Origin: a candidate division WWE3 bacterium UBA1379
GTDB lineage: Bacteria > Patescibacteriota > WWE3 > UBA101185 > UBA10185
Direction: 5' to 3'
Assembly: GCA_002305475.1 (NCBI GenBank)
Contig: DBRB01000015.1
Span: forward strand, 72,987 to 136,986
Length of the DNA: 64,000 bases
The notes beneath the pieces are model-generated. The model was not told where the DNA came from. It was given only the letters and a program-made list of their open reading frames with translations, and did no database searches. Position numbers and translations under genes: made by a program. How positions within the stretch are numbered: the first letter of the stretch is position 1; each line of letters opens with the position of its first letter. Below are positions 2,844-52,788 of the stretch, piece after piece.

Positions 2844-3585
2844 CCTATTAAAGGGAAAAACTGCCATTATTACTGGTTGTGCCAGCGGTATTGGATTAAG
2901 TACTATGGAATTATTTGCAACATGCGGTGCTGATGTTATGTCAATCGGTATTACAAAGGGAAGTCTTGATGAAGTATCGGCACGACTATCAAAAGAACAT
3001 TCAGTTTCGGTAATTCCCTACTACTTTGATATTTCTTCATATGACTCAGTAAAAAATTTCTATAGTATGTTAGTTAAGGAAAACAGGAAAGTAGATATTC
3101 TGATAAACAATGCAGGAATTTTAAGGGATGCTCTTATTCCTATGATTACTGAAGAGATACTGAAAAAGACTTATGAAGTTAACGTATTCGGATCCATTTT
3201 CATGATGCAGTATGCATCCAGAATGATGATGAGACAAAAGTCGGGAAGTATAGTAAATATTTCTTCCATTATCGGAACTCATGGAAACGAAGGGCAGGTA
3301 GTTTATGCAGGTAGTAAAGCGGCTTTAATCGGTGTGACAAAATCAGCTTCCAAAGAATTGGCAGGATATAATATCCGGGTAAATGCCATTGCTCCGGGAT
3401 TTATTGATACAAAAATGTCCCGTTCTATCCCTGAGGAGAAGTTTAATGAACGTCTCACCCAGATAAAAATGGGTCGGATCGGATCACCGGTAGATGTTGC
3501 TCAATGTGCATTATTCCTTTCCTCTGATCTATCATCTTATATCACCGGTGAAGTAATCGGGGTGGACGGTGAAATGATTATATGA
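2827..3585 (+). CDS. SDR-family oxidoreductase, 3-oxoacyl-ACP reductase (FabG)-like
   Basis: TGCASGIGLS glycine-rich NAD(P)-binding motif, NAG, and the YAGSKAA catalytic Y-x3-K. 252 aa. Confidence 0.8.
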   Translation: MESTFNLLKGKTAIITGCASGIGLSTMELFATCGADVMSIGITKGSLDEVSARLSKEHSVSVIPYYFDISSYDSVKNFYSMLVKENRKVDILINNAGILRDALIPMITEEILKKTYEVNVFGSIFMMQYASRMMMRQKSGSIVNISSIIGTHGNEGQVVYAGSKAALIGVTKSASKELAGYNIRVNAIAPGFIDTKMSRSIPEEKFNERLTQIKMGRIGSPVDVAQCALFLSSDLSSYITGEVIGVDGEMII

Positions 3586-6057: not shown

Positions 6058-7261
6058 TATTTTATGCCCGAAAAATGGAACATATGAAGATGTCTTAAAA
6101 TCAGAAAATTTTCTTCCGTACGGTTCCGCTGTGGTGGATTTTTTTCAGCAACTTTCTAAAAATATTCTTCAGAATAGTAATTATAAGAAATATCCGGAGA
6201 TTATTGCCTTAGGTTTCTGGTTACGAAAAGCCAATCTTATTAAGATGCAAAAGGACGTGTTTGAAAAAGAAACCACAAAGGACAATATAAAATTAGCAAG
6301 AGGTCTGGTCTTTCATATTGCACCGTCGAATGTAGACACTGTTTTTGCTTACTCTCTTTTTGTATCACTTCTGATGGGAAATAGAAATATCGTAAGGGTA
6401 TCAAGTCAAAGTTCTTTGGTTTTGGATTTACTTATAACTGAACTTAATGACATTCTATCATTAAAGGAATTCAAATCCCTAAGAAATAATTTGTTGATTG
6501 TCAGGTATGAACATAATGATGATACAACCACGGAATTTTCTTTGAGGTGTGATGTTAGGGTGATCTGGGGAGGGGACCAGACGGTAAATAAAATTAGATC
6601 TCTACCTTTGAATACTTCGGCACATGAGATTGTTTTTCCTGATCGGTTTTCTTACTGTGCAGTAAAGTCGAAAGAGTTTCTGAGTTTAAATCATCCTTTT
6701 GAACTAACGGATAAATTTTATAAGGATGTTTATACCTTTGATCAGAATGCATGTTCATCACCTAGGATGATATTCTGGATAGGTAGTTCTGAGGATAACC
6801 AAAAAGCTCAGGAAAAATTCTGGAGTTGTTTTAATGAAGTTGTAGAAAGTTACAGCGGGATACTGGAGCAGGATCATTCCTTACGAAAGCTAAATTCCAC
6901 AATTATTACGGCTGTAACAACAGAGGGAAAAGTTAAGATTATAAACGGATCCACTAACCGTATTACAAGAGTTCAATTTGATTCATTAAAGGATGTTCGA
7001 AGAGATGACCACTGTGGACTGGGATTATTTTATGAGGTGTGTATCAAAGATTTAAATGAACTTTCTTCTTTTTTCAGTTCAAAAGATCAAACCTTGAGTG
7101 TTTACGGGTTTTCAAATCAGGAGATATCTGATTGTCTTAATAAAGGTTGTAGGAGTATTTCCAGAGTAGTACCAATCGGAAAAGCTTTAGAATTTGATGT
7201 GGTATGGGACGGATATAATTTATTTGATGAGCTGACTAGAGAAGTCAGTATTGTTTCTTAA
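6050..7261 (+). CDS. LuxC-like acyl-CoA (acyl-protein) reductase family protein
   Basis: 403 aa. The N-terminal region (FLPYGSAVVDFF...FHIAPSNVDTVFAYSLF) resembles the LuxC fatty-acyl reductase family. It is translationally coupled to the LuxE-like gene. Confidence 0.5.
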   Translation: MFDILCPKNGTYEDVLKSENFLPYGSAVVDFFQQLSKNILQNSNYKKYPEIIALGFWLRKANLIKMQKDVFEKETTKDNIKLARGLVFHIAPSNVDTVFAYSLFVSLLMGNRNIVRVSSQSSLVLDLLITELNDILSLKEFKSLRNNLLIVRYEHNDDTTTEFSLRCDVRVIWGGDQTVNKIRSLPLNTSAHEIVFPDRFSYCAVKSKEFLSLNHPFELTDKFYKDVYTFDQNACSSPRMIFWIGSSEDNQKAQEKFWSCFNEVVESYSGILEQDHSLRKLNSTIITAVTTEGKVKIINGSTNRITRVQFDSLKDVRRDDHCGLGLFYEVCIKDLNELSSFFSSKDQTLSVYGFSNQEISDCLNKGCRSISRVVPIGKALEFDVVWDGYNLFDELTREVSIVS

Positions 7262-7262
7262 T

Positions 7263-7634
7263 ATGTGTATTCAGGGAGTAGGTATTGATATCGCAGAGAT
7301 AGAAAGATTCAAGGATAAAAGTGATTCTTTTTTCCGTAAAGTATTTACCGATAACGAAATAGAATACTGTCTGCAGAAAGGAGAACCAGCTCAGCACTTT
7401 TCTTCAAGATTTTCCGCAAAGGAAGCTGTTATTAAAGCTTTAGGATTAATGGGAATCTTTGATATTACCTATAAAGATATTGAGATTATTAATAGTGAAA
7501 ATAAGGTTCCAAGTTGCAGGATATATAAAAACGGTAAGATTACAGATGAATTTAATGTTAAAATCTCTATGTCTCATGCTCGGGGTTATGCAGCTGCAGT
7601 GGCCCTGATCAGTGAAAATTGCAAACAAGAATGA
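7263..7634 (+). CDS. acpS: Holo-ACP synthase (4'-phosphopantetheinyl transferase, AcpS type)
   Basis: GVGIDIAEIERF...FTDNEIEYC...RFSAKEAVIKALG is canonical AcpS. The ATG at 7263 is preferred over the TTG at 7251 used by the ORF track. Confidence 0.8.
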   Translation: MCIQGVGIDIAEIERFKDKSDSFFRKVFTDNEIEYCLQKGEPAQHFSSRFSAKEAVIKALGLMGIFDITYKDIEIINSENKVPSCRIYKNGKITDEFNVKISMSHARGYAAAVALISENCKQE

Positions 7635-7642
7635 TATAATAT

Positions 7643-8653
7643 ATGGCAGTCCCAATATTAAAATTAGCAACAATAGGCATTCTTCCTTCTCCAATAAAAA
7701 AGATGTACTACAAATCAAGAGGGGCAAAAATCGGTAAGAACGTTAATTTAGGTATTTTGTCAGTTATTGACTGTAAAAACCTAGAAATTGATGACGGAGT
7801 GAAAATGGGAATGATGACTTTTATCTGTGCCAAAAATGTGAAGCTTGGAAAACGGGCTCAGATAAAGATGATGTCGGCTGTGGATACCGGGGATCTGGAG
7901 ATGGCTGAAGATTCCATAATAATGGAGCAGGTTACTATCGGAGGAATGCTAACTCCCAGATCAAAACTCTATATGGGAAAAAGAGTCAGAATCTTTCCTT
8001 TCAGTTTTATTAATACTACTGAACCGGTAATTATTGAAGATGATTCAGGCGTAGGTGGGGGTAGTTATATCTTCACTCACGGTTCCTGGTTGTCTGTATT
8101 AGAAGGTTATCCGGCAACTTTCGGTCCGGTAAAAATTGAGAAAAATGTCTGGCTTCCCTGGAGAGTATTTATTATGCCCAATGTAACAATAGGTGAAGGT
8201 TCCGTAATCGGAGCAGGATCTGTAGTGACTGCGGACATACCTGAAAAATCCTTAGCATCCGGTTCTCCTGCTAAAGTTATTTTGGATAAGGGGAAATTTT
8301 TAAGAGTTCCAAACGAGGAGAAGAAGTTTGAGATAGTAAAAAAAATCATTAAAGAATTTACTGAATTTCAGGATTATCAAGGAATAGATAGTTTTTATCA
8401 GGAAGAAGGGGATAAGGTAACCTTTGGAATTAAATACAAAGATAGAGATTATCAAGGATTGTTGATTAAAGAAGTTACAGAAGATGTTGGTAGTTGCAAC
8501 GTCTTGATATCCATGCACTCTATTTCTGAACCGCCAACAGCATATTGGTTTGATCTTGAAAACAAGAAAGCAAAGCTTCCTTCAAATTATTTTTCCAAGG
8601 AAATAAATTCATTTTTTAGTCACTACGGAATAAGATTTGATTTTATTGACTAA
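7643..8653 (+). CDS. Hexapeptide-repeat (left-handed beta-helix) acyl/acetyltransferase with a C-terminal extension
   Basis: Repeated [LIV]-G-x-x-x-x hexads (IGKNVNLGILSVID..., VTIGEGSVIGAGSVV). 336 aa. Candidate N-acyltransferase in the WbpD/RfbO role. Confidence 0.6.
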   Translation: MAVPILKLATIGILPSPIKKMYYKSRGAKIGKNVNLGILSVIDCKNLEIDDGVKMGMMTFICAKNVKLGKRAQIKMMSAVDTGDLEMAEDSIIMEQVTIGGMLTPRSKLYMGKRVRIFPFSFINTTEPVIIEDDSGVGGGSYIFTHGSWLSVLEGYPATFGPVKIEKNVWLPWRVFIMPNVTIGEGSVIGAGSVVTADIPEKSLASGSPAKVILDKGKFLRVPNEEKKFEIVKKIIKEFTEFQDYQGIDSFYQEEGDKVTFGIKYKDRDYQGLLIKEVTEDVGSCNVLISMHSISEPPTAYWFDLENKKAKLPSNYFSKEINSFFSHYGIRFDFID

Positions 8654-8667
8654 AAAGTATCTTTATA

Positions 8668-9759
8668 TTACTTTTGAAGTCTTTCGTTATCCATCATATC
8701 CATCCACATAGCAAACAGAAGGGATTGAAATCCTGTGATGGTAAGAAACATAAAAGCCATAGTACTCTTGTCTGATAAGTATGCACCGATCAGAAAAGAT
8801 TCTATGACTCTCACAAAGAATATTGTATCGATAAGAAGTAGAATAAAACCTAAATGATATAAGAGAAATAACGGGTGAAAGTCGCGGATGAAATATTTTG
8901 TATAAAGACGTTTCCAAAACAGTTTAAACAGTAGCCAGGAAATTTTATGAATCACTTTGGCAATTTTCATTTTGGAATGTTCGCCTACATTATAAACAGG
9001 TTTGCTTGGGATTTCTTTGATTGTGCAATTGGCAATATTTAACTTAACTAAAATATCATTTGGGCATCCGTAGTAAGGATAGATATCAAATATCTTCATT
9101 AATTTTAAACATTTCAGATTTACTGCCGTATAGCTAGTCTGAGTATCGGATACTCTCCAGTAACCGCTGGCAATTTTTGTTAATAAAGATAAAACAGAAT
9201 TTCCGAATAACCTGACTGGCGGAATAACTACACTGGCTGCCGGATGGGTTAATCTGTTAATTTTGGTGGAATCAACCTCTCCGTTTATTACCGGCATACA
9301 CACATCTTCAAGTTCGGAAGGGTCCATTTGTCCATCTCCATCCATGATTGCAGTACAGTCAATATTATGATCACGACACCATTTGTATCCTGAAGCATAC
9401 GCTCTTCCCACATAACCATTGCTTAAGTGTTTAATTAGAACAACTCTGGAAGTAGGGCTTGATATGATTTCACTGGGTACATATTTGCAGTTTTCTTTTT
9501 CTTCTAACTCCTGGGCAATAATATCTGCATGATTGTATTTTGTCTGAGTAATTTTTTCCTTGCTGTCTTTTAAAGGGGTTACTTCCCTATGTTCTTTTTT
9601 AATGAAATCTTCAACTATTTGTGCTGTTTTATCCGTGGAGTAATCATCGATGATAACAATCCTGTCTACAAAATCAGGCATGGTTTCGATAACAAAGCCT
9701 ATTTGAGTTTCTTCATTATGACATGGAGCAACTACAGCAACAGTTTTCCCTTTAAGCAT
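8668..9759 (-). CDS. GT2 glycosyltransferase with C-terminal TM helices (polyprenyl-phosphate sugar transferase-like)
   Basis: VAVVAPCHNEE...IVIIDDYSTD (DxD region) with C-terminal hydrophobic helices. Confidence 0.7.
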   Translation of the reverse strand: MLKGKTVAVVAPCHNEETQIGFVIETMPDFVDRIVIIDDYSTDKTAQIVEDFIKKEHREVTPLKDSKEKITQTKYNHADIIAQELEEKENCKYVPSEIISSPTSRVVLIKHLSNGYVGRAYASGYKWCRDHNIDCTAIMDGDGQMDPSELEDVCMPVINGEVDSTKINRLTHPAASVVIPPVRLFGNSVLSLLTKIASGYWRVSDTQTSYTAVNLKCLKLMKIFDIYPYYGCPNDILVKLNIANCTIKEIPSKPVYNVGEHSKMKIAKVIHKISWLLFKLFWKRLYTKYFIRDFHPLFLLYHLGFILLLIDTIFFVRVIESFLIGAYLSDKSTMAFMFLTITGFQSLLFAMWMDMMDNERLQK

Positions 9760-9824: not shown

Positions 9825-10400
9825 TTATTGAATCTTTTCGCAAATTACTAACATTGATTGTTGCCATGCCAAGAGTTTTTGAATGATATTATAGTTTGGT
9901 TTATTGCCGGGATAGTATATTAATTTGGTTATTCTGAATCCTGAAACAGTTAGTATCCGTTCTAATGTAAATTTATCATGCCATAAAGTATGTGTAGGAT
10001 TGGGTTTCAAAAAAACAGTCGGCCATTTTGCATTAGGGGTGGTTAACACAAAGATTCCTTTATCGGATAAATGATTGTGAATATTTCTTAAAAACAATTC
10101 CTGGTTTGCCACATGTTCGATTACATCTCCCGCTATGATGACGTCAAATGTTTGATTAAATTTATATGTTTCCATATTGCCCCAGTGTATTCTTTCATCA
10201 TCGGGTAAGTTTTCTGTTTCCAATTTAAAGGTCCTTGTTGTTGAGTCAACTATGTTTGGAAGATCAATTCCGGTTAAAGACTTGCAATTAGTTTTTGACA
10301 GTTGGTTCCATAGACTATATGCTTCTGTCTGGCCGATGCTTCCGATATCCAGGACATCCTTGTTTTCAACTAGTTTTTCGATAATGTGTTCTCTAATCAT
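9825..10400 (-). CDS. Class I SAM-dependent methyltransferase
   Basis: VLDIGSIGQ (motif I), DVIIAGDVIEHV and the FVLTTPN post-I/II motifs. 191 aa. Confidence 0.65.
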   Translation of the reverse strand: MIREHIIEKLVENKDVLDIGSIGQTEAYSLWNQLSKTNCKSLTGIDLPNIVDSTTRTFKLETENLPDDERIHWGNMETYKFNQTFDVIIAGDVIEHVANQELFLRNIHNHLSDKGIFVLTTPNAKWPTVFLKPNPTHTLWHDKFTLERILTVSGFRITKLIYYPGNKPNYNIIQKLLAWQQSMLVICEKIQ

Positions 10401-12288
10401 ATGGTATTGGATATTTTGTAATCACAATATTATTCACCTTAGTTACATGAGGTTCAATACTTACAGGTAATGTTTTTATATAACTAAGCATTTCATCCTG
10501 AGCACCCGTGACATCTCTATAAGAATAGAAGAAGCTGCTTGGAATATCGGAGCTTATCAGTACAATATTTTTAACTCCATTTTTCTTTAAATCTTCATAA
10601 GTAGGCATAGAGAAATATCTAAGGTGCGTATAAATTTTTTGTGTCCCTAAGGTCTTTCCCATATATTTTTTCGGTATTCTAGGATCAAGTTTCCATGCCC
10701 ATTCTTGTTCCATGTAAGTATCATTAATATAGAAACCTATAAGTTCTTCCAATCCTGCAGTATAGTTCATAAGCACCGGAAATTCTCCTATAGCTTGGGC
10801 AATCTTTTCTGCATTGTAATTTCGTCCGTAAACCATTGTGCTTGCAATTTGTCCTTGAAGACTTAAGCTGAAGTACACAGCAATGCTTGGAAAAAAAGTG
10901 CATATCGATAATAAAAGAATAAAAATTCCTTGAGCATATTTTATCCGGATTAATATCCAAATCGGAGACAGAAACTGGTTTATGATATTGGGAAAAAGAA
11001 TTGCGAATAAACCCATTAAAAGAATGATATTAAGTCCTATTTTTATCATTAAATATCCTTCCTCGAATAAAAGACTCAGAATGACCATAATCGAAGTAAT
11101 AGTCAGAACAGATATTTTAAATCTGAAACTCATTCTCTCTTCATTTGTCAGATATAAATAAAATATGAATACAAAAGGCGCGATAGGAAATAGGTATCTT
11201 CCGTGTCCGCTCATTAACATAAATACCAATAGGTATGTCCAAAAAATCACTGAAAGGAAAGATAATTGGAATTCCTTTTCTTTTAACCAACGTCGGAACA
11301 TAAATATTGATGAAAAAAATGAAGGCACAATGATACCAAGTGGTATAGACGTGTAGCCAAAATTTCTCGGATATAATGTTTTTCCGAAATACAGGAGAAT
11401 AATGTTAACAGATTTTAGTATCAACCCTTTCGGGGAATTATCCTCTCTATCCACATAAAAAGTGGGGATTTTTCTTGAGTTTATTCCCATAAAGTTTCTG
11501 GTTGAAGAGTACGGATTAAAATTTCCCGTCAATGTATCGGCATGAATATCTTCTTCAGTCATTAAGAAAATATGTGCGTGGTAGATATTCAAAGGTATTA
11601 AACCGGTATACATCATTAGAATTAATGCAGCCAATGCCGGTGTGAAATTGAAAAGAAGAGTGGTGGTCATGTCTTTTAAAGTGTTAAGTGGTTTTATTCT
11701 AAGCCAGTTGGATGCTATTAATTTCGTAATAACAAACCAGATAAAATACCCTAATGCAATACTGTAATAAACATGTTCTTTTGCATCGAACATGAACAGG
11801 AATATTAATCCTACAACGATAGGAGTTTTCTTTCTGATAATTGCGTGAATGAGAAGAAGAACTGTAAATAGAACAGGAATTTCTCTTAAATAAGTAAAAT
11901 AGTTAAGAACAAAATGATAGGAAGATACAAGCAATAAAGTACCGAAGAAGGCTAATTTTTCCATTTTTAAATCTTCTTTTAGTATTTTGTAAAACAAAAC
12001 AAGAGATAATATTCCGAATATATAGGTTGAAATTGTAGCTACCGCAACCGAAGGCCCGGTAAAAATATAAAATATGGCAACCGGTACTTTTGACAGCACT
12101 CCGTGCAGGCTGACTCCATAATTTCCCGGCCATATACCTTTTTTAATTAACTCGGAAAGAAGTACCGTTTCCCGAAGATAATATGTTTCGTCACTGATTG
12201 GAGTTCGGAAAAACAGCATTACAAATGAAACTATCACCAATATTCCTATCAGATAACTTAATTCTGAATTATTTTTCAGATAGTGCAT
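10393..12288 (-). CDS. GT-C-fold glycosyltransferase-like polytopic membrane protein (ArnT/PMT-like)
   Basis: 631 aa, multi-TM. The first-loop ISDETYYLRE resembles the DE-x-RY acceptor-loop motif of the ArnT/PMT family. A C-terminal soluble domain is present. Confidence 0.45.
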   Translation of the reverse strand: MHYLKNNSELSYLIGILVIVSFVMLFFRTPISDETYYLRETVLLSELIKKGIWPGNYGVSLHGVLSKVPVAIFYIFTGPSVAVATISTYIFGILSLVLFYKILKEDLKMEKLAFFGTLLLVSSYHFVLNYFTYLREIPVLFTVLLLIHAIIRKKTPIVVGLIFLFMFDAKEHVYYSIALGYFIWFVITKLIASNWLRIKPLNTLKDMTTTLLFNFTPALAALILMMYTGLIPLNIYHAHIFLMTEEDIHADTLTGNFNPYSSTRNFMGINSRKIPTFYVDREDNSPKGLILKSVNIILLYFGKTLYPRNFGYTSIPLGIIVPSFFSSIFMFRRWLKEKEFQLSFLSVIFWTYLLVFMLMSGHGRYLFPIAPFVFIFYLYLTNEERMSFRFKISVLTITSIMVILSLLFEEGYLMIKIGLNIILLMGLFAILFPNIINQFLSPIWILIRIKYAQGIFILLLSICTFFPSIAVYFSLSLQGQIASTMVYGRNYNAEKIAQAIGEFPVLMNYTAGLEELIGFYINDTYMEQEWAWKLDPRIPKKYMGKTLGTQKIYTHLRYFSMPTYEDLKKNGVKNIVLISSDIPSSFFYSYRDVTGAQDEMLSYIKTLPVSIEPHVTKVNNIVITKYPIPYD

Positions 12289-13502
12289 ATTATCCTTTGG
12301 TATTTTTCTGAAACTTTATTTATATCAAATTCTTCTTTTGCATAAATAATACTATCTTGTTTTATCTCCTGTAATTTATTGCTTGCTTTTAAGTCCATAA
12401 GGTATGTGATTTTGTCTGCCAGTTCATCTACATTTCCTTTTGAAAACGTAAATATACACTTATCTGTCTGGTCCGTATCATTAAATTGGGGCAGATCAGA
12501 AACCAGAACTGGGCATCCGCAGCTTAAAGCTTCCATCATCACAACTGGCCAGCCTTCACTGTAGGAAGGAAGTACCAGAAAATCAGAGACCGCCAGATAC
12601 TTGGGAAGATTATTATTTGGGACTAACCCCAAAAATCTCACATTATTAGTTATACAAAGATTTTCACATTTTTTTTGTGCAGTTTCTCTGAGTTGACCTT
12701 CGCCGGCAACAAAAAGGATGGTATCAGGATATTTTTCCAATACTTTTGGCATGCTATTAATAAGATCAAGGATACCTTTAGCCTGAATAATTGAGCCTAC
12801 AAAAATAATGATATTGCTATTCAGACTAAGATCCAGGGATTCTTTTAGATCTTCAATATTGTTTACCGGTTTAAAAACACTTCTGTCTACACCCATTGGA
12901 CATACCTCCACTAGTGCTTTATCGTGGAGTTTTAATATTTTCTTTTTAAGATAAGAATTTACAGTTGATACATAATTGCAATTTTTAAGAATTAATCTGT
13001 CCAGATACTCGAAAAAAGCCAGAGTTAATCTGTTTAAATCACTGCCGTGTATGGTAAGAATGACATTAACATTGGGATTAAAAATTTTTTTAAAAATGAT
13101 CGTACTTAATCCGGAAGGATAAAGCCAGTGTGGATTAATTACATCTATATGGTTTTCTTTAGTAAGTTTCTTTATGGCAAATATTTGAGAGATGAAAACT
13201 AAGGGGAGTATGGCAAATAAATAAGGTTTTTTTTGCAGGTTAGGAAGAATTCCGTCCCCATAGAATAAACCAAAATCCCCAAAAGGTGTAATGGGATTTC
13301 TATATACTTCTATTCCATCCCAATTTTCAATCTTTGCTAATCCCTTACTGTGAGGAGTAAGAACTAATACCCTATTATATTTAATCAACCCTTCAGCTAG
13401 TTTCATCACAAATCCGCCCATCATCTCATCTTTTTTATTAGATGCAGGAAAAGATGAAGTAATAATTAATACAGTTTTTCTATTTGATTTGGTATATGAC
13501 AT
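12276..13502 (-). CDS. GT4-family glycosyltransferase
   Basis: FVGSIIQAKG...SYSEGWPVVMMEALSCGCPVLVSD (E-x7-E motif region). Confidence 0.75.
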   Translation of the reverse strand: MSYTKSNRKTVLIITSSFPASNKKDEMMGGFVMKLAEGLIKYNRVLVLTPHSKGLAKIENWDGIEVYRNPITPFGDFGLFYGDGILPNLQKKPYLFAILPLVFISQIFAIKKLTKENHIDVINPHWLYPSGLSTIIFKKIFNPNVNVILTIHGSDLNRLTLAFFEYLDRLILKNCNYVSTVNSYLKKKILKLHDKALVEVCPMGVDRSVFKPVNNIEDLKESLDLSLNSNIIIFVGSIIQAKGILDLINSMPKVLEKYPDTILFVAGEGQLRETAQKKCENLCITNNVRFLGLVPNNNLPKYLAVSDFLVLPSYSEGWPVVMMEALSCGCPVLVSDLPQFNDTDQTDKCIFTFSKGNVDELADKITYLMDLKASNKLQEIKQDSIIYAKEEFDINKVSEKYQRIICTI

Positions 13503-14637
13503 AATCTCCCGCCGTATAAATTATATCTGTTCTTCTGCGGAGAAACTCAACCATTTTATTATTATAAGCATCATATTTTGTATTATGAAGAATATATTTT
13601 ATATTTATTCCCGGTGTTGGTGTTTTATCTATAGTATCGGAGTCAGGATTCATGACCACAATTTTGTTATTTTCCCAATAACATGTAACAGCACCCATCC
13701 AGTTGCCGAACCAACAGTATAATCCAGGTTTATCCGTATAGTAGTAAAACTCGGATAAGTTATTTACCACGAACCATTCATGAGAATTTGATGGCATATT
13801 ATTAATAAAGTCAAATATTGTCTTAGTCGGGTGATCCTTTAACTGTGATTCCTTGTCTTTATTTTCAGTGCTAATATTACCGGTTAAATAATTGTTATTT
13901 TCCTTATTAAGTACAATGAATGCTTTAAAAGAGTTTATCAGTACAAGAATTAAAATACTGACAAGGATTATAGATTTATATTTACGGATAAATACATTAG
14001 AAGTAATTTCATTTATAAGGTAAAAAATCAAGGCAAGAGTAATTGGTTGATTAGTCATTTGGTAGCGATAGTTATAGGGGTCTTTGAAAATCAGTATAAC
14101 TGAAACAATATAATATAGGAAAAACGCGATTTCCCATCTTTTACGTTTCCTGATTGTAACAATCCCATACAAGAGGAGAGGAATGGCTAACCAGTTCAGG
14201 TTACCTAAAAGTTTAAATCGGAAAAACTGACCCAAATTACCATTGAAAAACATTTTTCCATCTGTCTCTACATCTCTGTCTGTGCTGCTTAGGTCTGAGT
14301 AATACCCAAGTGATATTAAATTATCTTTAATCAGGATTTTTTGTTCCTCACTAACATTCGGATCGATATAAAGGTATTCCGGGTGCATAGGGTCCGGGTG
14401 GTAGTATTTTTTCAAAAGAGATATTTGCTGTTTAAATGCAGCATTATTTGGTGATTCTTCTGTTAAAGCGGAAACAGCAATATATTCTGGCAAGCTTAGT
14501 TCAGAGACATCTGTATTATTAATTATTGAATACACGTTAAATACAACAAGGTATGCTAAAAAAATGCATCCGATGATTGATATTCCGGTAATTACTTTAA
14601 ACTTTCCTGTATTAATTTCCATTGCAGTTTGAGCCAT
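13480..14637 (-). CDS. Membrane protein of unknown function
   Basis: 385 aa, with an N-terminal TM, a central soluble region and additional C-terminal TM helices. Gene overlaps couple it into an operon. Confidence 0.35.
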   Translation of the reverse strand: MAQTAMEINTGKFKVITGISIIGCIFLAYLVVFNVYSIINNTDVSELSLPEYIAVSALTEESPNNAAFKQQISLLKKYYHPDPMHPEYLYIDPNVSEEQKILIKDNLISLGYYSDLSSTDRDVETDGKMFFNGNLGQFFRFKLLGNLNWLAIPLLLYGIVTIRKRKRWEIAFFLYYIVSVILIFKDPYNYRYQMTNQPITLALIFYLINEITSNVFIRKYKSIILVSILILVLINSFKAFIVLNKENNNYLTGNISTENKDKESQLKDHPTKTIFDFINNMPSNSHEWFVVNNLSEFYYYTDKPGLYCWFGNWMGAVTCYWENNKIVVMNPDSDTIDKTPTPGINIKYILHNTKYDAYNNKMVEFLRRRTDIIYTAGDYVIYQIK

Positions 14638-15722
14638 GTGACCCAGACATCTCCAAAGAGGATATCAAATAAATAATGAACTGCTCCAAACACTAATATC
14701 AATATTCCGATGATTAAAAGATTAATGATTTTGTTTTTAATACTTTCTCTAGAAAACAACCCATAAAGAATAAATAATATTCCGGCTAAGGCAAAACCCA
14801 AAGAATGGGCATTTGCCATAAATCCCCCCGATATTCCGAAAAGTAGTACCAATAGTCTATTTGGTTTCTCAATTACCTGTAGAAGAAGACTTAGTGTTAT
14901 AACTAGGAAGGCTATCCTGTAAGTATCTAAGTGATAGTATAGTAATGAGGCACCGAAGGCTGGTGTGAGAACCAGAGCTGTAGCTGCAATAAAAGCAATT
15001 ACTTTATCTTTTTTCATTAACCAGTACAGCAGTTCCAGCACAATAATGATCCAGTACCACCCTGTTACACTGCGAAAGTAGTAATCTCCCTGACTACTGG
15101 TGATATCATTCCAGAATCTTTCCCAGGTCCCAAAAATTGGAAAGTTCATCCCGTGAAGACCAACAAAGTAGAATCCGGTCGTTGGATCAAACCTTTGATT
15201 TGAATAGTTAATCTGTTTTCGTTCAGATAATACCTTACCCCATGTCCCATATTCAAAGGTATCGTGTCTTATAATCGGAATTTTAACTACGATAATTTGC
15301 CAGGCAAGGAAAAATATTGTTAAAGCAGAAGCGATAAAGAGAAAAATTTTTGGTTCGGTCTTTTTCTTTTCCTGAAGGAAAGTTAGGGTACTATCCCTTA
15401 GTTTATGCAAATTTTTTCTTCCGATTATCAAAAGATAAGTAAACACAGCAAACACAACGGAAACATAAAAAAGAGATGATTGTTTAGGTATTAAGATAAG
15501 AAGGTAGTAAATAAGCAGACTACAGATAGAAGGAGCTATTGCTGCTGAGATTAGATAAAGTTGGGGTAAACTTAAGACTTTTTTCTTATCTAATGTATAT
15601 ATAAACAAAGCCACAATTCCCGTAAAAAGAACATTAATGATATACAGCAGTATTAGATATGATAGGAAGTTATAAAACATATATTTACTTTGGATTATAG
15701 AGCTTGGGTTGACTGTTAACAA
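14592..15722 (-). CDS. Polytopic membrane protein of unknown function (possible polymerase or GT-C-like)
   Basis: 376 aa with about 10 TM helices. An alternative start at 15680 removes the overlap with the upstream gene. Confidence 0.35.
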   Translation of the reverse strand: MLTVNPSSIIQSKYMFYNFLSYLILLYIINVLFTGIVALFIYTLDKKKVLSLPQLYLISAAIAPSICSLLIYYLLILIPKQSSLFYVSVVFAVFTYLLIIGRKNLHKLRDSTLTFLQEKKKTEPKIFLFIASALTIFFLAWQIIVVKIPIIRHDTFEYGTWGKVLSERKQINYSNQRFDPTTGFYFVGLHGMNFPIFGTWERFWNDITSSQGDYYFRSVTGWYWIIIVLELLYWLMKKDKVIAFIAATALVLTPAFGASLLYYHLDTYRIAFLVITLSLLLQVIEKPNRLLVLLFGISGGFMANAHSLGFALAGILFILYGLFSRESIKNKIINLLIIGILILVFGAVHYLFDILFGDVWVTWLKLQWKLIQESLK

Positions 15723-17685
15723 TTTTAATTACTTCGCTTATGTGTAATCCTACAGTATCACAGTACCATTTAATAGATTCCAAACGAGGTCTGCTTTCTT
15801 CTAACAGTAAATCGTAAGCTTTTGCTCTTGAAATCTGACCGTTTCTTATCTGATTGCTTCTAAAAGTATCAATTTCTGTAAACCCGCCCATTGTATAGTA
15901 AATATAGTTATAAAAGGAAGCGGTTCCGTCTCCGATTCTCCAGGTAGATTTTGTATCAGGTGAGGTTTCCCAATCATATTGTTCAATTAGTGTTTTATTT
16001 ATTTCTTCTTCGTCCCATTGGATGTAATCAAAAAACGAGTAGTAGTTGATTCTTGGTTCAATGTAGTAAGAAAAGTAGGCACCTATGGTATCTAGTAATG
16101 ATGTGTTTAAATATGCAGGGTTTATTAGGTATTGTTTTGAATAAAAATTTGCTAATTTAATTTTTTGTGAAAGGGTTAAATGATCAATTCTTTTCTTATT
16201 AAAATTCGGAGATATTCCGCAATAGCCTATCTTGAAATTGGTTTCTTCAAGTCTATTGCTCATCCACACATCCATTTTAATTCCCGTTCTTCTCTTTACT
16301 ACATTCACATAATAGAAAAACTGTTTATCTCCCGCCATAAATAATGGAACCGTACCCAGACTGGGTTTTTTCAACCAGGCAGTCACATTTTTTCTAATAT
16401 TTTCCCTCTTTCTTTGAATATCCGCAGAGATTAGGATATTTTCTATCCCCAGACTTCCGCACATTCTGGCAATATTACGTCTTGCAAGATCAGTAACCAT
16501 TCCCCAGTCATAAGTATACGTTACCGGGTTTAAACCAAGCTCTTTTTTTAAATAATGCAATCCATAACTTGAATCTCTTCCCCCACTAAAAGGAACAATG
16601 CAATCAGCTTGTCGGCTTGTACTTCTAAATTGTTCGGCAATTTCCATAAACTTATCTTTTCCTAATGGGGTAGGAACATTATATGATTCACAATAGTTGC
16701 ATACTCCCTCTTCATTAAAGGAAATAAATGGCATAGTTTCTGGGAGTAGACATTTAGAACACCTTCTTAGCTTTGCGATTGCTTCCTTATTTTTTTGATA
16801 TTCTTCTTCTTCAATTTTTTGAACGTCTGAAAAATCTTTATCATTTTGGGATCTGGTTGTCGGCAGTACTACATTTACCTTTAAACTTTCAACTTGTATC
16901 TGTCTTTCTTTTGTTTTGTTTTCAAATAAATCCTGAGTAGTTTCATTAAATGTAAAACATACTTCTCCATCTGTATCAATATTTACCAGTCTGCATGAAT
17001 AGGGGGATGTTTGTATAATTGGATCATCTTCTTTAAATAGTTTTGGAAATTTAATTTTTACTTGTTCCAGAAAATATTTTTCGGATGCGAATATTCTGAT
17101 ATCGTTGTTCGGGTTTATAAGTTCATATAAAGATCCATTGTTAGTAAGAAAGGCAATATGGTTTAAATCGGAAAAGAGGGAAATGATTGTATATGCACCT
17201 TTAAGTAATTTTACCGTTTCAAGTATTGCGTCTTTCAAGTTATGTTTTGTGCTAATAAAATTCCTTAATAAGGAATTGAATACCTCAGTATCAACCTGAT
17301 ACTCTCGTTTTAAATTAGGAAATTCCTCCCATAGTTTTGCATCATTAACAATTATCCCGTTATGAACCGAAGCAATTCCTTCTTTCACAACCGGTTGATT
17401 ATTGTAATCCACTGCAAAGGTTCCGTTTGTTTCCATTCTTGAGTGTCCGACTACAGCAAGTATTTTCTGGTCATGAGTAAACAAGTCATTATATTTTTTT
17501 GTCCGAATAAAATTGGAAGCTCGGATTGGACTTTTTATAATTTTTATATCTTTATCTGTGACTACAGCTATACCGGATGCATCCTTGCCCCTTGACTCTG
17601 AAAGCTTGATAATAATGTTTGAGATACTTTGTAGATCTTGGTTGTTTAACCTATTATTATGGATAATTCCGAACACACCGCACAT
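15685..17685 (-). CDS. Fusion protein: N-terminal class-II (Ntn) glutamine amidotransferase domain plus C-terminal WbpG/PseA-like N-acetyl-sugar amidotransferase (PP-loop) domain
   Basis: It starts MCGVFGI (Cys2 nucleophile of GATase-II). In the middle is CSKCLLPETMPFISFNEEGVCNYC, which matches the CxxC...GVCnxC zinc-ribbon signature of WbuX/WbpG-family amidotransferases. This is followed by the PP-loop FSGGRDSS. 666 aa. Confidence 0.6.
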   Translation of the reverse strand: MCGVFGIIHNNRLNNQDLQSISNIIIKLSESRGKDASGIAVVTDKDIKIIKSPIRASNFIRTKKYNDLFTHDQKILAVVGHSRMETNGTFAVDYNNQPVVKEGIASVHNGIIVNDAKLWEEFPNLKREYQVDTEVFNSLLRNFISTKHNLKDAILETVKLLKGAYTIISLFSDLNHIAFLTNNGSLYELINPNNDIRIFASEKYFLEQVKIKFPKLFKEDDPIIQTSPYSCRLVNIDTDGEVCFTFNETTQDLFENKTKERQIQVESLKVNVVLPTTRSQNDKDFSDVQKIEEEEYQKNKEAIAKLRRCSKCLLPETMPFISFNEEGVCNYCESYNVPTPLGKDKFMEIAEQFRSTSRQADCIVPFSGGRDSSYGLHYLKKELGLNPVTYTYDWGMVTDLARRNIARMCGSLGIENILISADIQRKRENIRKNVTAWLKKPSLGTVPLFMAGDKQFFYYVNVVKRRTGIKMDVWMSNRLEETNFKIGYCGISPNFNKKRIDHLTLSQKIKLANFYSKQYLINPAYLNTSLLDTIGAYFSYYIEPRINYYSFFDYIQWDEEEINKTLIEQYDWETSPDTKSTWRIGDGTASFYNYIYYTMGGFTEIDTFRSNQIRNGQISRAKAYDLLLEESRPRLESIKWYCDTVGLHISEVIKIVNSQPKLYNPK

Positions 17686-17808: not shown

Positions 17809-18828
17809 ATGTCGCTTAACTTTGCATTAATCGGAGCAGGTGGATACATAGCTCCAAGACATCTTAAAGCAATTAAAGAAACGGGAAATAATTTGGTAGC
17901 TGCTGTTGATAAAAATGATTCAGTCGGTATTCTGGACAGCCATTTCCCTGAAGTTGAATTTTTTACTGATTTTGAAGCATTTGAAAAATTCGCTTGTAAA
18001 CTTAAGAGAAGCAATCCGGAAAAAGCAATTAATTATGTCAGTATTTGTACCCCCAACTATTTACATGAGGATCATATAATCTCTGCCTTAAGGCTTGGAG
18101 CTAATGTGATTTGTGAAAAACCCTTAGTATTAAACACAGAAAGCTTGGATAACCTTCAGGCAACAGAAATGGAACTGGGTATGGGTAAGGTAAATACTGT
18201 ATTGCAGCTTAGACTTCACCCCGTTCTCCAGCAGCTGAAAGATAGGATTAATAATGAAACCAGGGACCATCCTTATGATATAGATCTTACTTATATAACT
18301 CCGCGTGGAAAGTGGTATTACATCTCCTGGAAAGGGGATTCAAAAAAATCCGGCGGGGTGATGATGAATATTGGTATTCACTTTTTTGATATGCTTACAT
18401 GGATTTTCGGAGGTGTGAAAAGCCAGGCAACTTATTGTTTGAATGATACAAAAGCTTCAGGACACCTTGAACTGGAAAAAGCCAGAGTGCGCTGGTACCT
18501 GTCACTGGACAGAAATGATCTTCCAGAAACGTACAGGCAGAATAATAAAGCATACAGATCCATTACTATTGATGGAGAAGAATTATCTTTTACCGACGGA
18601 TTTACCGATTTACATACTGAGATATACAAAAAAGCCATCGCCGGTGATGGCTTTGGTATGGAATATGCCAGGCCATCCATAGAACTGGTGGAAATGATCA
18701 GAAACTCTTCTATTGCACCAATAAATTCAAAACTTGCTCATCCTATAATTCTAGGAAATCACTTTTCTTCACAGAAACAGGAAATTCCTGCCGCTGTCCC
18801 TATAGACGCTAAAGTTGAAGAAAAATAA
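17809..18828 (+). CDS. Gfo/Idh/MocA-family NAD-dependent sugar-nucleotide oxidoreductase (WbpB/GnnA-like 3-dehydrogenase)
   Basis: N-terminal Rossmann fold (ALIGAGGYIAPRHLKAI) and the EKPL motif in VICEKPLVL. It is followed 2 nt downstream by a DegT aminotransferase. Confidence 0.8.
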   Translation: MSLNFALIGAGGYIAPRHLKAIKETGNNLVAAVDKNDSVGILDSHFPEVEFFTDFEAFEKFACKLKRSNPEKAINYVSICTPNYLHEDHIISALRLGANVICEKPLVLNTESLDNLQATEMELGMGKVNTVLQLRLHPVLQQLKDRINNETRDHPYDIDLTYITPRGKWYYISWKGDSKKSGGVMMNIGIHFFDMLTWIFGGVKSQATYCLNDTKASGHLELEKARVRWYLSLDRNDLPETYRQNNKAYRSITIDGEELSFTDGFTDLHTEIYKKAIAGDGFGMEYARPSIELVEMIRNSSIAPINSKLAHPIILGNHFSSQKQEIPAAVPIDAKVEEK

Positions 18829-18830
18829 TC

Positions 18831-19925
18831 ATGCAAATACCCTTTGTGGATCTCAAAACACAATACAAAAATATTAAAAAAGATATTGATCAATCTTTAT
18901 TTGAAATCATTGAAAATGGCACGTTTATTTTAGGAAAACCGGTTGAAGAATTTGAAAAAAACATTTCTTCTTATTTAGATGCTTATTCTTTAGGGTGTGC
19001 ATCCGGCAGTGATGCTCTACTTTTGGCGTTGATGGCATCCGATATAAAAGAAGGGGATGAAGTAATAACCACTCCTTTTACTTTCTTTGCTACTGCCGGT
19101 GCTGTTGCACGGTTGGGAGCTGTACCTGTTTTTGTGGATATTGATGAAAAGACTTTTAATATTGATCCGGTAAAAGTTGAGCAAGCAGTAAGTGATAAGA
19201 CCAGAGCTATTATTCCTGTACATATTTTTGGTCAATCTGTGGATATGGATCCTGTATTAGAAATATGCGAAAGACGTAATCTGACTTTAATTGAGGATGC
19301 ATGTCAGGCGATAGGTGCAGAATATAAGGATAAAAAGGCAGGAACAATGGGTAGATTCGGATGTTTTTCTTTTTTCCCGACTAAAAACTTAGGCGGATTC
19401 GGCGATGGGGGGTTGATAACGTGCAAAAATGAAGAAGATTACAAATTACTTAAAAAATTACGTGTTCATGGTTCTGAAAAAAAGTATTTCCACGATGTAA
19501 TCGGAATAAACTCAAGACTGGATGCTATTCAGGCAGGTGTATTAAACATTAAACTGAAATATCTAGATGAGTGGAATACCAGGAGGGTTGAAATTGCTCA
19601 GAAATATTCTGAATCACTAAAAGATCTGGTTCAGACTCCTTATGTAATTAAAGACGCTGAACACATTTATCATCAGTATGCCATTTTAACTAAAGATAGA
19701 GACACCCTTTTAGCACATCTAAATCAAAATGGTATTTCCAGCGGAGTATATTATCCGCTTCCCTTACACCTTCAGAAATGTTTTGAATATCTAGGTTATA
19801 AGGAGGGGTATTTACCTGTTAGTGAAAAGGTATCTAAAGAAATTCTCAGCCTTCCGATATATCCGGAAATGACGGAGGCCCAGGTTGAATACATAATAAA
19901 CACGGTTCGCTCATTTTTCTCATAG
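18831..19925 (+). CDS. DegT/DnrJ/EryC1/StrS-family PLP-dependent sugar aminotransferase (WbpE/GnnB-like)
   Basis: DEVITTPFTFFAT, the PLP lysine context FSFFPTKNLGGFGDGG, and the IPVHIFGQ motif. 364 aa. Confidence 0.85.
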   Translation: MQIPFVDLKTQYKNIKKDIDQSLFEIIENGTFILGKPVEEFEKNISSYLDAYSLGCASGSDALLLALMASDIKEGDEVITTPFTFFATAGAVARLGAVPVFVDIDEKTFNIDPVKVEQAVSDKTRAIIPVHIFGQSVDMDPVLEICERRNLTLIEDACQAIGAEYKDKKAGTMGRFGCFSFFPTKNLGGFGDGGLITCKNEEDYKLLKKLRVHGSEKKYFHDVIGINSRLDAIQAGVLNIKLKYLDEWNTRRVEIAQKYSESLKDLVQTPYVIKDAEHIYHQYAILTKDRDTLLAHLNQNGISSGVYYPLPLHLQKCFEYLGYKEGYLPVSEKVSKEILSLPIYPEMTEAQVEYIINTVRSFFS

Positions 19926-20043: not shown

Positions 20044-20988
20044 ATGTCTGAGAAAAAGAAACTGGTTTCAATCGTATCACCAGCCTATAACGAAGATGTA
20101 AATATACCCCTGATGGTAGAAGAGGTGAAAAAAAGCCTTTTACCTTTAAGTGATAAATATGATTTTGAATATATCATTGTCAATGATGGAAGTTGGGACA
20201 ATAGCTGGGAAGTGATTTGTGAGGAGAATAAAAAAGATTCCAGGGTAAAAGGAATAAATTTTTCAAGAAATTTCGGACACCAGATGGCCTTGACAGCCGG
20301 TTTGGATCGGGCAAAGGGAGATGTTGTAATATATTGCGATTCTGATTTACAGCAACCGCCTTCATTATTTCCAAAGATGTTAAAACTTTGGGAAGATGGG
20401 GTGAAAGTTGTACATACAAGACGGACTTTTACTGACGGAGAAGGCACATCTAAGAAATTATTATCCAAATTATTTTATAAATTCATAAATCTTTTATCTG
20501 ATACGGAAATAAAAGAAGGTTTTGCCGATTTTAAACTACTTGATAAAGAAGTGCTGGAAAAAGTTAAAAGTATGCGTGAGCATAACCGTTTCTTACGCGG
20601 TATGGTTCCCTGGCTGGGTTTTAAGTCTGCAATCCTGGAATACAAAGCGGGAAAGCGTCTACATGGAACACCCTGGTACAACTTCAGTAGAAATCTCGAG
20701 TTTGCAAAAACAGGCATTATGTCTTTTTCCATAAAACCGTTAAAATATATAGGATATTTTGGTGTATTTTTAACCATAGGATCTATAGCAATATTATTTT
20801 TAGGAGCTGTAATCAGTTTTATAAAAGGGGCATTGTATTTCTCACCCACATTTTATCTGCTGGTATTTAATACACTTTTAAACGGATTGATGATGAGTGC
20901 ACTAGGTATTGTGGCATTGTATATCAGTTATATTTATCAGGAGGTTATAAACAGGCCGTTGTATTTGATTTCCGATGTTGTTGAATAG
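20044..20988 (+). CDS. GT2 polyprenyl-phosphate glycosyltransferase (ArnC/GtrB-like) with two C-terminal TM helices
   Basis: VSIVSPAYNE...YIIVNDGSWD...IYCDSDLQ, and a C-terminal hydrophobic pair. Confidence 0.75.
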   Translation: MSEKKKLVSIVSPAYNEDVNIPLMVEEVKKSLLPLSDKYDFEYIIVNDGSWDNSWEVICEENKKDSRVKGINFSRNFGHQMALTAGLDRAKGDVVIYCDSDLQQPPSLFPKMLKLWEDGVKVVHTRRTFTDGEGTSKKLLSKLFYKFINLLSDTEIKEGFADFKLLDKEVLEKVKSMREHNRFLRGMVPWLGFKSAILEYKAGKRLHGTPWYNFSRNLEFAKTGIMSFSIKPLKYIGYFGVFLTIGSIAILFLGAVISFIKGALYFSPTFYLLVFNTLLNGLMMSALGIVALYISYIYQEVINRPLYLISDVVE

Positions 20989-24007: not shown

Positions 24008-25678
24008 ATGATAAAAGATTATTTATTTGGATATATTGAAGATAACGTATTTTTAGTAACAAAAAATGTAGTTTGGATTGACGGTCGTAATATTCGATAT
24101 GGTATGGCCGCAATTTATAGGATGCATCCCATATTTTCAGCCGTTTACTTTTTTCTATTAAAGCATCTACATCCTTTGGTTTTGTATAACTCACTGACAA
24201 TATTGACACTACTATTGGTAAGCTTTTTGTCATTTACGATATTTAGACGTTACTTTGGAAAGTATATATCGCTATTACTTTCCGCAGCTTTTGTTATGTC
24301 TCCATATTTTTACTACCATTCGAGAAATCATTTGGAGTTGATACAGCTATGGATATTTCTCATACCTTTATTAATTTTATTGAAGGCATCAACTAGTATT
24401 CACTATGTAATATTAGGGTGTATTTTGGGTATTGGGACATTAATAAATAGTTATTTAGGTTTTTTTACCATAATTTTTATAGTAATATTCTTGCTTAGTA
24501 AATTTCTTTCTTTAGAAACAAAAAAAAGTTTTATTTTGAATTTTGTAAAATCTCTGTTTTTAGTTTTTATACCCTTTTTATTAGTAGTTACAATATTTGC
24601 TTATCCTGTATTAAAGGCTAATTTCATCAATAGGCTTTCGTTAGTGGATTCCTCAGAAATTGATTCCACTTTGATAGTGGAAAGAAATTTAGAAAACTTT
24701 TTTTACTTTACAACACGACCTTGGTACTATGTTCTTCCTTCTGTTGATAACCCATTTTTTGGAGGAGTTACACAAAAAGTATTGGATTGGATGGAACATG
24801 ATTGGGGATATTTTCTTACACTTAACTATTTCAAAAGTGAGCATTCTGTTTCATTCATGGGTTGGGCGGGTATCTTATTATCCTTATTAGGCATAGGGTA
24901 CATAAAAAAGCATCCAGATTTAAAAAATCGTAAAGAAATAATCATGTTATGTATTCCAGCATTATTTTTTGTATTAATTTCGTTACCTCCATATTTTACT
25001 GTTTCTGGTTTGAAGATTTATACGCCAAGCTATTTAATGTGGTTGCTTTTTCCTATGTTTAGAGTGTTATCCAGAACAGGCATTTTTATATTATTTTCTT
25101 TATTGATCCTTAGAGGTTTTGGCTTTATCGCCATTATTGAGTTTTTGAAAGAAAAATTTGTATCTGTAAAGAATAAAAACATGGGTAATGTAGTTGTCAT
25201 AGTTGTACTAGTGTTGTTAACACTATTTAACTTAGCTGAATTCTATATTCCATTTAGATTTACAGATTTACATACTACTCCCAAAGTATATACATATATC
25301 AAAGAACATCTTCCTAAGGATTCAATTATTGCACTCTATCCATATTCAAAAACAAGTGATGCTGTATATTGGTTTCAATATTTAGATCCAATTTTAATTA
25401 ATCCACTCTATAAAAAGAGAGGTGATTTTAACTCGGCAATATTTACTAAAGAGTTGCCAACTTCGGCTGGAATACAAAAAGCAAAAGAGTATGGCGTGGA
25501 TTATGTTGTCTATTATTATAACGAGGACGCAAATGAAATAGATTTTTTCAATAATAGCCCTTTGTTAACTTTGATTTCTGATATTAATGAAGAAGCTAAT
25601 ACAAACAAAAAGACTTTGTTTTATTCAATAGAAGGCGTTGATGAGACAGATAGCGCATTCATATACAGAATAAATTAA
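24008..25678 (+). CDS. Large polytopic membrane protein with C-terminal soluble domain (GT-C-like architecture)
   Basis: 556 aa with about 11 TM helices and a hydrophilic C-terminal domain of about 150 aa. Confidence 0.4.
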   Translation: MIKDYLFGYIEDNVFLVTKNVVWIDGRNIRYGMAAIYRMHPIFSAVYFFLLKHLHPLVLYNSLTILTLLLVSFLSFTIFRRYFGKYISLLLSAAFVMSPYFYYHSRNHLELIQLWIFLIPLLILLKASTSIHYVILGCILGIGTLINSYLGFFTIIFIVIFLLSKFLSLETKKSFILNFVKSLFLVFIPFLLVVTIFAYPVLKANFINRLSLVDSSEIDSTLIVERNLENFFYFTTRPWYYVLPSVDNPFFGGVTQKVLDWMEHDWGYFLTLNYFKSEHSVSFMGWAGILLSLLGIGYIKKHPDLKNRKEIIMLCIPALFFVLISLPPYFTVSGLKIYTPSYLMWLLFPMFRVLSRTGIFILFSLLILRGFGFIAIIEFLKEKFVSVKNKNMGNVVVIVVLVLLTLFNLAEFYIPFRFTDLHTTPKVYTYIKEHLPKDSIIALYPYSKTSDAVYWFQYLDPILINPLYKKRGDFNSAIFTKELPTSAGIQKAKEYGVDYVVYYYNEDANEIDFFNNSPLLTLISDINEEANTNKKTLFYSIEGVDETDSAFIYRIN

Positions 25679-51463: not shown

Positions 51464-51466
51464 TTT

Positions 51467-52777: not shown

Positions 52778-52788
52778 AATAAAACTCC

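Follow-up and report, generated by a model that had tools for sequence, protein, structure and literature searches.

Enzymes of the N-acetyl sugar amidotransferase (NASAT) family are ordinarily served by separate HisH/HisF-type partners that supply their ammonia. Canonical members (TIGR03573: WbpG, WbuX, LfnA, PseA and AglX, with LpNASAT, 8WEX, as the structure) work with the partners HisH2 and HisF2 (WbuY/WbuZ, AglY/AglZ). The family is defined by a PP-loop together with the zinc motif CXXCXn[GN]XCXXC (PMC10607449). WbpG is thought to obtain its ammonia from HisH2/HisF2, and its interaction with HisF2 has been validated (PMC11445079); the same gene triad is present in a Sphingomonas cluster (PMC11340318). 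The ammonia route to NASATs has so far only been inferred, from these partners. Here we describe a gene in a 64,000-nucleotide stretch of contig DBRB01000015.1 (the window), whose product instead carries its own N-terminal class-II glutaminase in front of a NASAT-type amidotransferase domain (Table 1). Proteins with this fusion constitute a large, widespread and unrecognised subfamily of NASAT-type amidotransferases, in which a class-II glutaminase in cis replaces HisH/HisF.

The window protein is identical to entry P0001 in the public data, and AlphaFold models the entire chain confidently as one unit (pLDDT 89.8, pTM 0.90). A Foldseek search found no solved structure spanning both halves (TMq ≤0.34). 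An earlier annotation made from the letters alone (the sequence-only reading) had pointed to the MCGVFGI start, the zinc element and the SGGRDS PP-loop, and had proposed a class-II glutaminase fused to a WbpG/PseA-type domain. The open reading frame (ORF) is intact, the motifs lie where that reading put them, and the GATase_6/GATase_7 and TIGR03573 matches, together with the fold, bear out the fusion; the observation is therefore confirmed and the core of its interpretation is correct, while the interpretation as a whole is partly supported.

GATase_6 and GATase_7, both in the N-terminal half, are the sole Pfam matches of the protein. Among NCBIfam profiles, residues 1–216 score 77.6 bits with GlmS, 56.7 with PurF and 25.4 with AsnB. 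Residues 1–215 display the N-terminal nucleophile (Ntn) hydrolase fold, and their best structural and profile matches are the PurF/GlmS glutaminases, so that the label "AsnB-type" given to this domain by the sequence-only reading has to be replaced by PurF/GlmS-like. In a phmmer alignment, R83, N109–G110 and D132 correspond to GlmS R73, N98–G99 and D123. The glutaminase domain thus retains the Cys1/Arg/Asn-Gly/Asp set of GlmS and PurF, whose acceptor domains, a sugar isomerase or a phosphoribosyltransferase, are unrelated to the PP-loop ATP pyrophosphatase of the fused enzyme.

The C-terminal half aligns with NCBIfam TIGR03573 (WbuX, N-acetyl sugar amidotransferase) from end to end, residues 308–655 covering profile positions 3–342 of 344 (E 6e-40, 137.7 bits), far above chance level. 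The domain adopts the LpNASAT fold, with a Rossmann-like core and a basin-shaped pocket, and its closest fold and profile are, by a wide margin, those of the amidine-forming NASAT family. The signatures SGGxDS and CxxC...[GN]xCxxC are shared with the canonical enzymes. The zinc site reads C309-SK-C312 ... G327-V-C329-NY-C332, in agreement with the family motif (PMC10607449), and the PP-loop SGGRDS, which fits SGGXDS, is shared with six canonical members of the superfamily, as it is with LpNASAT.

Among 40 homologues with 47–56% identity, M1-C2-G3, R83, N109-G110, D132-T133-E134, the four zinc cysteines and SGGRDS are invariant. Mean pairwise identity amounts to 17% in the connector, 45% in the N-domain and 61% in the C-domain, and the distances of the two domains are correlated (Mantel r 0.70, 0/2000 permutations; Spearman 0.28). 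Because the catalytic residues are invariant and the divergence of the two halves is correlated, both active sites appear to be under selection inside one co-evolving unit.

The window and 80 fused-gene loci were searched for ammonia-supplying partners by six-frame phmmer with E. coli HisH and HisF. In the window, no HisH/HisF homologue was found at E ≤10, nor by Pfam on the ORFs scanned, as the sequence-only reading had noted. For comparison, 80 loci with a canonical NASAT were collected from metagenomes, and counts were made on loci of at least 8 kb (39 canonical, 74 fused). HisH and HisF are both present in 31/39 canonical loci versus 3/74 fused-gene loci (Fisher p 5e-17). In each of the latter three (L014, L028 and L040) the two genes sit directly against that of a canonical NASAT of 383–447 residues, encoded on its own, which matches the fused C-domain with E values of 1e-12 to 1e-19; matches among the fused enzymes themselves reach about 1e-150. 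Small clusters of neighbours whose size would suit a hidden HisH or HisF (15, 19, 21, 28 and 29) were rejected as candidates; they contain no class-I glutamine amidotransferase (GATase) and no HisF, and correspond to a nucleotidyltransferase, a sugar transferase, methyltransferases or no assignment.

The strongest evidence for the class-II domain as the ammonia source is provided by a locus in which the fusion is split (L083; 7186–10271 and 16283–18271). The N-domain has a stand-alone counterpart there, a 251-residue homologue (MCGIFG..., E 1e-32), whose gene immediately precedes one for a fused-type C-domain; in the product of the latter, the amidotransferase domain is joined to an MprF-type LPG_synthase_TM membrane domain. 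Elsewhere in this locus a canonical NASAT is encoded as a fusion with HisH, and HisF comes next. Both glutaminase solutions are therefore found side by side inside the NASAT superfamily, and, as judged from this gene arrangement, each branch keeps its own kind of glutaminase.

Other arrangements were observed in individual loci. In L012, a full-length fused gene is followed, 6 kb further on, by a stand-alone fused-type C-domain of 362 residues (17809–18897), 42% identical to that of the window; this copy has no glutaminase domain, and HisH/HisF were not found in the locus. In L021 and L069, the second gene upstream of the fused gene encodes a stand-alone canonical NASAT (7774–8934 and 2679–3833, respectively) and the first is a DUF354 gene; HisH/HisF were not found in the fetched loci. 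In L053 (9995–12034), a single in-frame stop separates the glutaminase from the amidotransferase half, so that the gene may be a pseudogene or naturally split, unless the stop is an error of sequencing.

All 80 fetched loci, from GTDB genomes of more than 10 phyla, are glycan loci and contain genes of the GT2, GT4, Wzx, Bac_transf and DegT types, and the fused gene is usually co-oriented with the surrounding glycan-synthesis genes. In this setting, at times with the WbpB/WbpE pathway alongside, the fused gene resembles WbpG. Neighbours were compared with one hidden Markov model (HMM) and the same transmembrane (TM) helix criterion on 74 fused and 37 canonical-only loci. A GT2 of GtrB/ArnC architecture was found in 37/74 fused versus 3/37 canonical-only loci (p 7e-6), the GT-C-like protein c13 in 15/74 versus 0/37 (p 0.002), the membrane protein c12 in 12/74 versus 0/37 (p 0.008) and a Wzx-like flippase in 31/74 versus 3/37 (p 2e-4), the HMMs having been trained on fused loci (GT2a from fused-gene neighbours) and the two sets of loci coming from different collections. 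The strongest partners of the fused gene are thus GtrB/ArnC-like and GT-C-like membrane glycosyltransferases, which are rare in canonical NASAT loci. A WbpB/WbpE pair was rejected as a family-wide partner: WbpB/WlbA-type genes occur in only 8/80 loci (about 10%) and are no commoner beside the fused gene (5/74) than beside canonical NASATs (6/39).

We hold it reasonably probable that the enzyme is a self-contained glutamine- and ATP-dependent amidotransferase acting on a cell-surface glycan precursor. In the N-terminal Ntn domain, Cys2, bared after Met removal, would hydrolyse glutamine to release ammonia. The C-terminal zinc-ribbon/PP-loop domain would adenylate a carbonyl oxygen of the sugar substrate, converting ATP to AMP and pyrophosphate (PPi), and the ammonia, presumably channelled between the two sites, would then displace AMP. 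By homology, the likeliest target would be an N-acetyl group, converted to a cationic acetamidino group, with the cis-fused glutaminase performing the role that the HisH/HisF pair has for canonical members. The fused enzyme would thus probably equip a cell-surface sugar with a positively charged group. Acetamidino sugars place a fixed positive charge on surface glycans and, in Pseudomonas, Legionella and Campylobacter, are important in serotype, in recognition by the immune system and in colonisation. The fused family would represent a second solution to the ammonia supply, in a single polypeptide, that may ease reconstitution in vitro compared with the three-protein system.

In the window, the predicted operon combines the fused gene with GT-C-like and GtrB/ArnC-like glycosyltransferases and faces a WbpB/C3-aminotransferase pair. 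Because this pair faces the fused gene, the substrate here could plausibly be a 2-acetamido-3-amino(acylamido) hexose. The sequence-only reading was right about the WbpB-like and WbpE-like neighbours, which match 3OA2 (E 3e-107) and the QdtB/DesV/WbpE clade. It had further proposed a 3-acetamidino sugar-nucleotide as the product; a 2-acetamido-3-amino hexose derivative is made plausible by the pair, while the specific product is not established.

Several observations weigh against this reading. Despite the end-to-end alignment, the score of the C-domain does not reach the curated TIGR03573 cut-off of 203.2 bits, and fused-type C-domains are no more than 22–27% identical to the canonical enzymes and LpNASAT. 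Both groups have the zinc site and PP-loop in common, along with D393, N404, D453 and R620; at dozens of positions, including YDWGM 392–396, R402–R403, WRIGDGT 582–588 and ExDTFRS 604–610, the fused type has invariant residues of its own where canonical NASATs differ. On account of the low identity, the score and these residues, the reaction or substrate class of the fused enzyme could differ from that of the canonical NASATs. Fused and canonical enzymes are encoded in the same locus in eight cases (L014, L021, L028, L040, L069, L083, L085 and L100), and for this reason they are probably not redundant. With WbpB/WlbA-type genes in so few loci, the substrate proposed above is local to the window. 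The literature covered contains no in vitro assay of any NASAT, canonical or fused, PMC10607449 reporting a structure only.

Since the score lies under the curated cut-off and NCBI calls members "hypothetical protein", the C-domain is, by sequence, a sister subfamily of the curated TIGR03573 family and not a member of it, forming a deep branch of the WbpG/WbuX/PseA/LpNASAT superfamily. Because of this divergence, and because canonical systems co-occur with the fused gene, amidine formation is a best guess by homology.

The main rival keeps the architecture and changes the chemistry: an AsnB/WbpS-like activity on a NASAT-like scaffold would amidate a carboxylate, for instance converting the C6 carboxyl of a hexuronic acid (GlcNAc3NAcA) to a carboxamide. 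Adenylation followed by attack of ammonia is equally workable on a carboxylate, and the deep divergence of the C-domain, with its own invariant pocket residues and its score below the family cut-off, is compatible with such a change, as is the non-redundant role suggested by a canonical NASAT beside the fused gene in eight loci. The WbpB orthologue in the window points in the same direction, P. aeruginosa WbpB acting on a uronic acid in the Wbp pathway. However, true AsnB-type enzymes (PF00733, 307 bits) neighbour the fused gene in 14/74 loci, twice in S. carbinolicus, and these separate genes would already supply carboxylate chemistry. A UDP-sugar 6-dehydrogenase forms a recurring neighbour cluster in only 5/80 loci and was absent from the window scans, and the wide margin by which fold and profile favour the amidine-forming family also argues against carboxylate amidation, which we consider unlikely. 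It is very improbable that the PP-loop/zinc-ribbon domain acts on a non-glycan, such as a tRNA base in the manner of TilS, TtuA or QueC, or a small metabolite, with the glycan context incidental: glycan-synthesis clusters, mostly co-oriented, recur around the fused gene across the 80 loci, and the LpNASAT match covers the whole domain and is much stronger than that to any RNA-modifying enzyme.

The sequence-only reading had kept a plain AsnB-family paralogue as its alternative, whose probability we place close to nil. The AsnB family, which includes WbpS and beta-lactam synthetase/CarA, follows the same logic, with an N-terminal Ntn Cys glutaminase feeding a C-terminal PP-loop adenylating domain, and JGI names some members of the fused family "asparagine synthetase B". 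Profile and fold comparisons nevertheless rule this assignment out. PF00733 (Asn_synthase) has no match in the 666-residue protein at E ≤1, and TIGR01536 (AsnB) matches residues 2–215 only, with 25.4 bits against a cut-off of 267.1. The sequence-only reading would have been refuted by a C-domain scoring better with AsnB than with the sugar amidotransferases, and the comparison went the other way: on the C-domain TIGR03573 scores and PF00733 does not, and in structure the domain resembles LpNASAT. Beyond the PP-loop core it cannot be aligned with AsnB, and the domain arrangements of the two enzymes do not superpose. The zinc ribbon and the PurF/GlmS-like glutaminase further set the fused enzyme apart, and the two fusions most likely arose independently. 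There is precedent for PP-loop enzymes gaining non-homologous glutaminase modules: GMP synthetase combines a PP-loop domain with a class-I glutaminase, and glutamine-dependent NAD+ synthetase combines one with a nitrilase-type domain, the PP-loop families and substrates differing from those discussed here.

Returning to the favoured amidotransferase acting on a surface-glycan precursor, the stage at which it would act may be approached from its neighbours. The enrichment in GtrB-type GT2 and GT-C genes, the LPG_synthase_TM fusion and the adjoining LPG_synthase_TM genes suggest, and do not prove, that the fused enzyme serves a lipid-carrier decoration of the Arn/Gtr type and may act on a polyprenyl-phosphate-linked sugar. 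The three-component Arn (4-amino-4-deoxy-L-arabinose, Ara4N) and Gtr systems comprise a GT2 (ArnC/GtrB), a flippase and a GT-C (ArnT/GtrC), a set resembling that around the fused gene in the window and in half of the loci. The Arn pathway installs a cationic amino sugar, and Arn/Gtr systems are not known to include an amidotransferase; their tie to the fused enzyme is one of gene neighbourhood only. In a tentative extension that we regard as rather doubtful, the family would work on a lipid-linked and not a nucleotide sugar, in an Ara4N-like, charge-modifying decoration pathway. A GtrB/ArnC-like GT2 would load an N-acetylhexosamine (HexNAc) onto polyprenyl phosphate, the fused enzyme would turn its N-acetyl group into a cationic acetamidino group at the cytoplasmic membrane face, and a flippase would move the sugar across for transfer to a surface polymer by a GT-C (PMT_2-like) enzyme. 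Such a pathway, if real, would be common in Patescibacteria, Bacteroidota, Chloroflexota and Planctomycetota; the GtrB/GT-C association points to a testable, possibly new route of decoration.

In four loci of Patescibacteria type (L006, L024, L025 and L064), the fused gene is directly adjoined by a separate LPG_synthase_TM gene. Two soluble proteins without Pfam matches also lie near the fused gene, c15 (about 260 residues) in L004, L005, L010, L012, L040, L042, L062 and L076, and c29 (about 197 residues) in L017, L028, L040, L041 and L045; each is immediately downstream of it in five loci.

A search of protein collections returned 7,956 matches, the best 120 of which are all full length (634–728 residues), and when each GTDB species was represented by one genome, at least 564 species proved to have a full-length relative. 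Among the species listed are Patescibacteria, Bacteroidota, Ignavibacteria, Chloroflexota, Planctomycetota, Proteobacteria, Verrucomicrobia and Acidobacteriota, with three Cognataquiflexum species and Geomonas paludis as cultured carriers; Methanoperedens archaea are also found among the protein-collection matches. Agrobacterium sp. RAC06 and S. carbinolicus (WP_129355994.1) are further carriers in culture. An exhaustive HMMER search with the C-domain yielded 3,764 representatives when the threshold was E ≤1e-3; at E ≤1e-30 there were 411, these being clusters at 50% identity. Of the top 149 representatives, 141 have at least 600 residues and 127 begin with MCG.

The names given to these proteins are "hypothetical protein", GlmS, AsnB, TilS or "predicted glutamine amidotransferase". 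Full-length homologues on RefSeq plasmids are called "7-cyano-7-deazaguanine synthase" (QueC), "hypothetical protein" or "glucosamine 6-phosphate synthetase", and canonical relatives on RefSeq plasmids are correctly named "N-acetyl sugar amidotransferase". Recognition of the family would therefore correct many annotations and point to possible amidino-sugar glycans in phyla about which little is known, Patescibacteria among them. No description of a class-II GATase/NASAT fusion was found in the literature, subscription-only papers lying outside the search, and an earlier description is possible. On plasmid pBSY240_1 of Agrobacterium sp. RAC06 (L165, 9001–10815), the RefSeq start of WP_236759418.1 lies about 21 codons downstream of the MCG N-terminus matched by tblastn, and the protein as annotated probably does not contain its catalytic Cys.

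Table 1. Positions of the fused gene, its functional sites and its neighbours in the window
Feature	Positions	Strand	Evidence or remark
Fused gene, whole	15685–17685	minus	666 aa, intact ORF, N-terminus MCGVFGI; class-II glutaminase/NASAT-type amidotransferase
N-terminal Ntn (class-II) glutaminase domain, residues 1–215	17041–17685	minus	
Cys2 nucleophile of glutaminase	17680–17682	minus	
R83 of glutaminase domain	17437–17439	minus	
N109–G110 of glutaminase domain	17356–17361	minus	
D132 of glutaminase domain	17290–17292	minus	
Connector, residues 216–305: small beta unit and long helix 276–303	16771–17040	minus	secondary structure from model
C-terminal NASAT-type PP-loop ATP-pyrophosphatase domain, residues 306–666	15688–16770	minus	
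Tetracysteine zinc site C309-x2-C312 ... G327-x-C329-x2-C332, residues 309–332	16690–16761	minus	CSKCLLPETMPFISFNEEGVCNYC
PP-loop SGGRDS, residues 367–372	16570–16587	minus	predicted ATP to AMP + PPi site
8-TM GT-C/PMT_2-like membrane protein (cluster c13), next in operon	14592–15680	minus	Pfam PMT_2; 312 bits to c13 HMM
4–5-TM membrane protein (cluster c12)	13480–14637	minus	182 bits to c12 HMM
GT4	12276–13502	minus	
10-TM protein	10393–12288	minus	no Pfam/NCBIfam match; only relative among the 80 loci in L016
Methyltransferase	9825–10400	minus	
GtrB/ArnC-architecture GT2 (polyprenyl-phosphate sugar transferase type), last of string	8668–9759	minus	340 bits to GT2a HMM
WbpB orthologue (UDP-GlcNAc(A) 3-dehydrogenase type), divergent	17809–18828	plus	3OA2 WbpB E 3e-107, 362 bits, full length; 3O9Z E 1e-93
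Sugar C3-aminotransferase, DegT, QdtB/DesV/WbpE clade	18831–19925	plus	7B0D 387 bits, QdtB 329, DesV 284, WbpE 278; Pfam DegT 396
Second GtrB/ArnC-type GT2	20044–20988	plus	5EKP GtrB E 2e-56, full length; ArnC E ~1e-28; two C-terminal TM helices from residues 233 and 272

The fused gene heads a tightly packed string of minus-strand genes that runs from 17685 down to 8668. The c12 protein of the window has no match in Pfam or NCBIfam, and the order fused gene, c13, c12, Wzx is found in L011, L013, L015, L047, L067 and L068. A scan of the operon for promoters and terminators was uninformative, with fewer promoter-like sites than in shuffled sequence. NCBIfam names were equally uninformative for the WbpB-like and DegT neighbours, both of which were resolved by a PDB sequence search; no WbpA-, WbpI- or WbpD-like gene adjoins this pair in the window. 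The closest locus (L002) belongs to a candidate division WWE3 genome and has in common with the window the aminotransferase (553 bits) and a LuxC/LuxE/hexapeptide transferase cassette. A contig with this stretch comes from a Logan assembly of SRR5321211, and the source is probably a Patescibacteria-type organism.

In the window, this cassette (2827–8653, plus strand) consists of an SDR (short-chain dehydrogenase/reductase)/FabG-like protein, an AMP-dependent ligase, LuxE, LuxC, a phosphopantetheinyl transferase (7251–7634) and a 336-residue hexapeptide transferase, and resembles a unit that activates acyl groups and N- or O-acylates the glycan. The genes for LuxC, LuxE and the hexapeptide transferase recur in L002, and that for the hexapeptide transferase also directly beside the fused gene in L004, L005, L010, L042 and L062. 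A 969-residue protein (32044–34953, plus strand) unites Wzy_C (O-antigen ligase) and PMT/PMT_2 GT-C domains in one polypeptide. Further multi-TM proteins are the 10-TM protein of Table 1, an 8-TM DUF6311-like protein (24008–25678, plus) and another PMT_2 protein (25767–27209, plus), and the density of GT-C-like enzymes in this glycan locus is unusual. The first part of a dcw division/cell-wall cluster lies at 51053–61057 (plus strand), with MraW at 51467–52372 and a histidine-kinase-like ORF nearby (55217–56053). These, like RecO (42792–43352) and LexA (63155–63784), are ordinary housekeeping genes unrelated to the fused gene.

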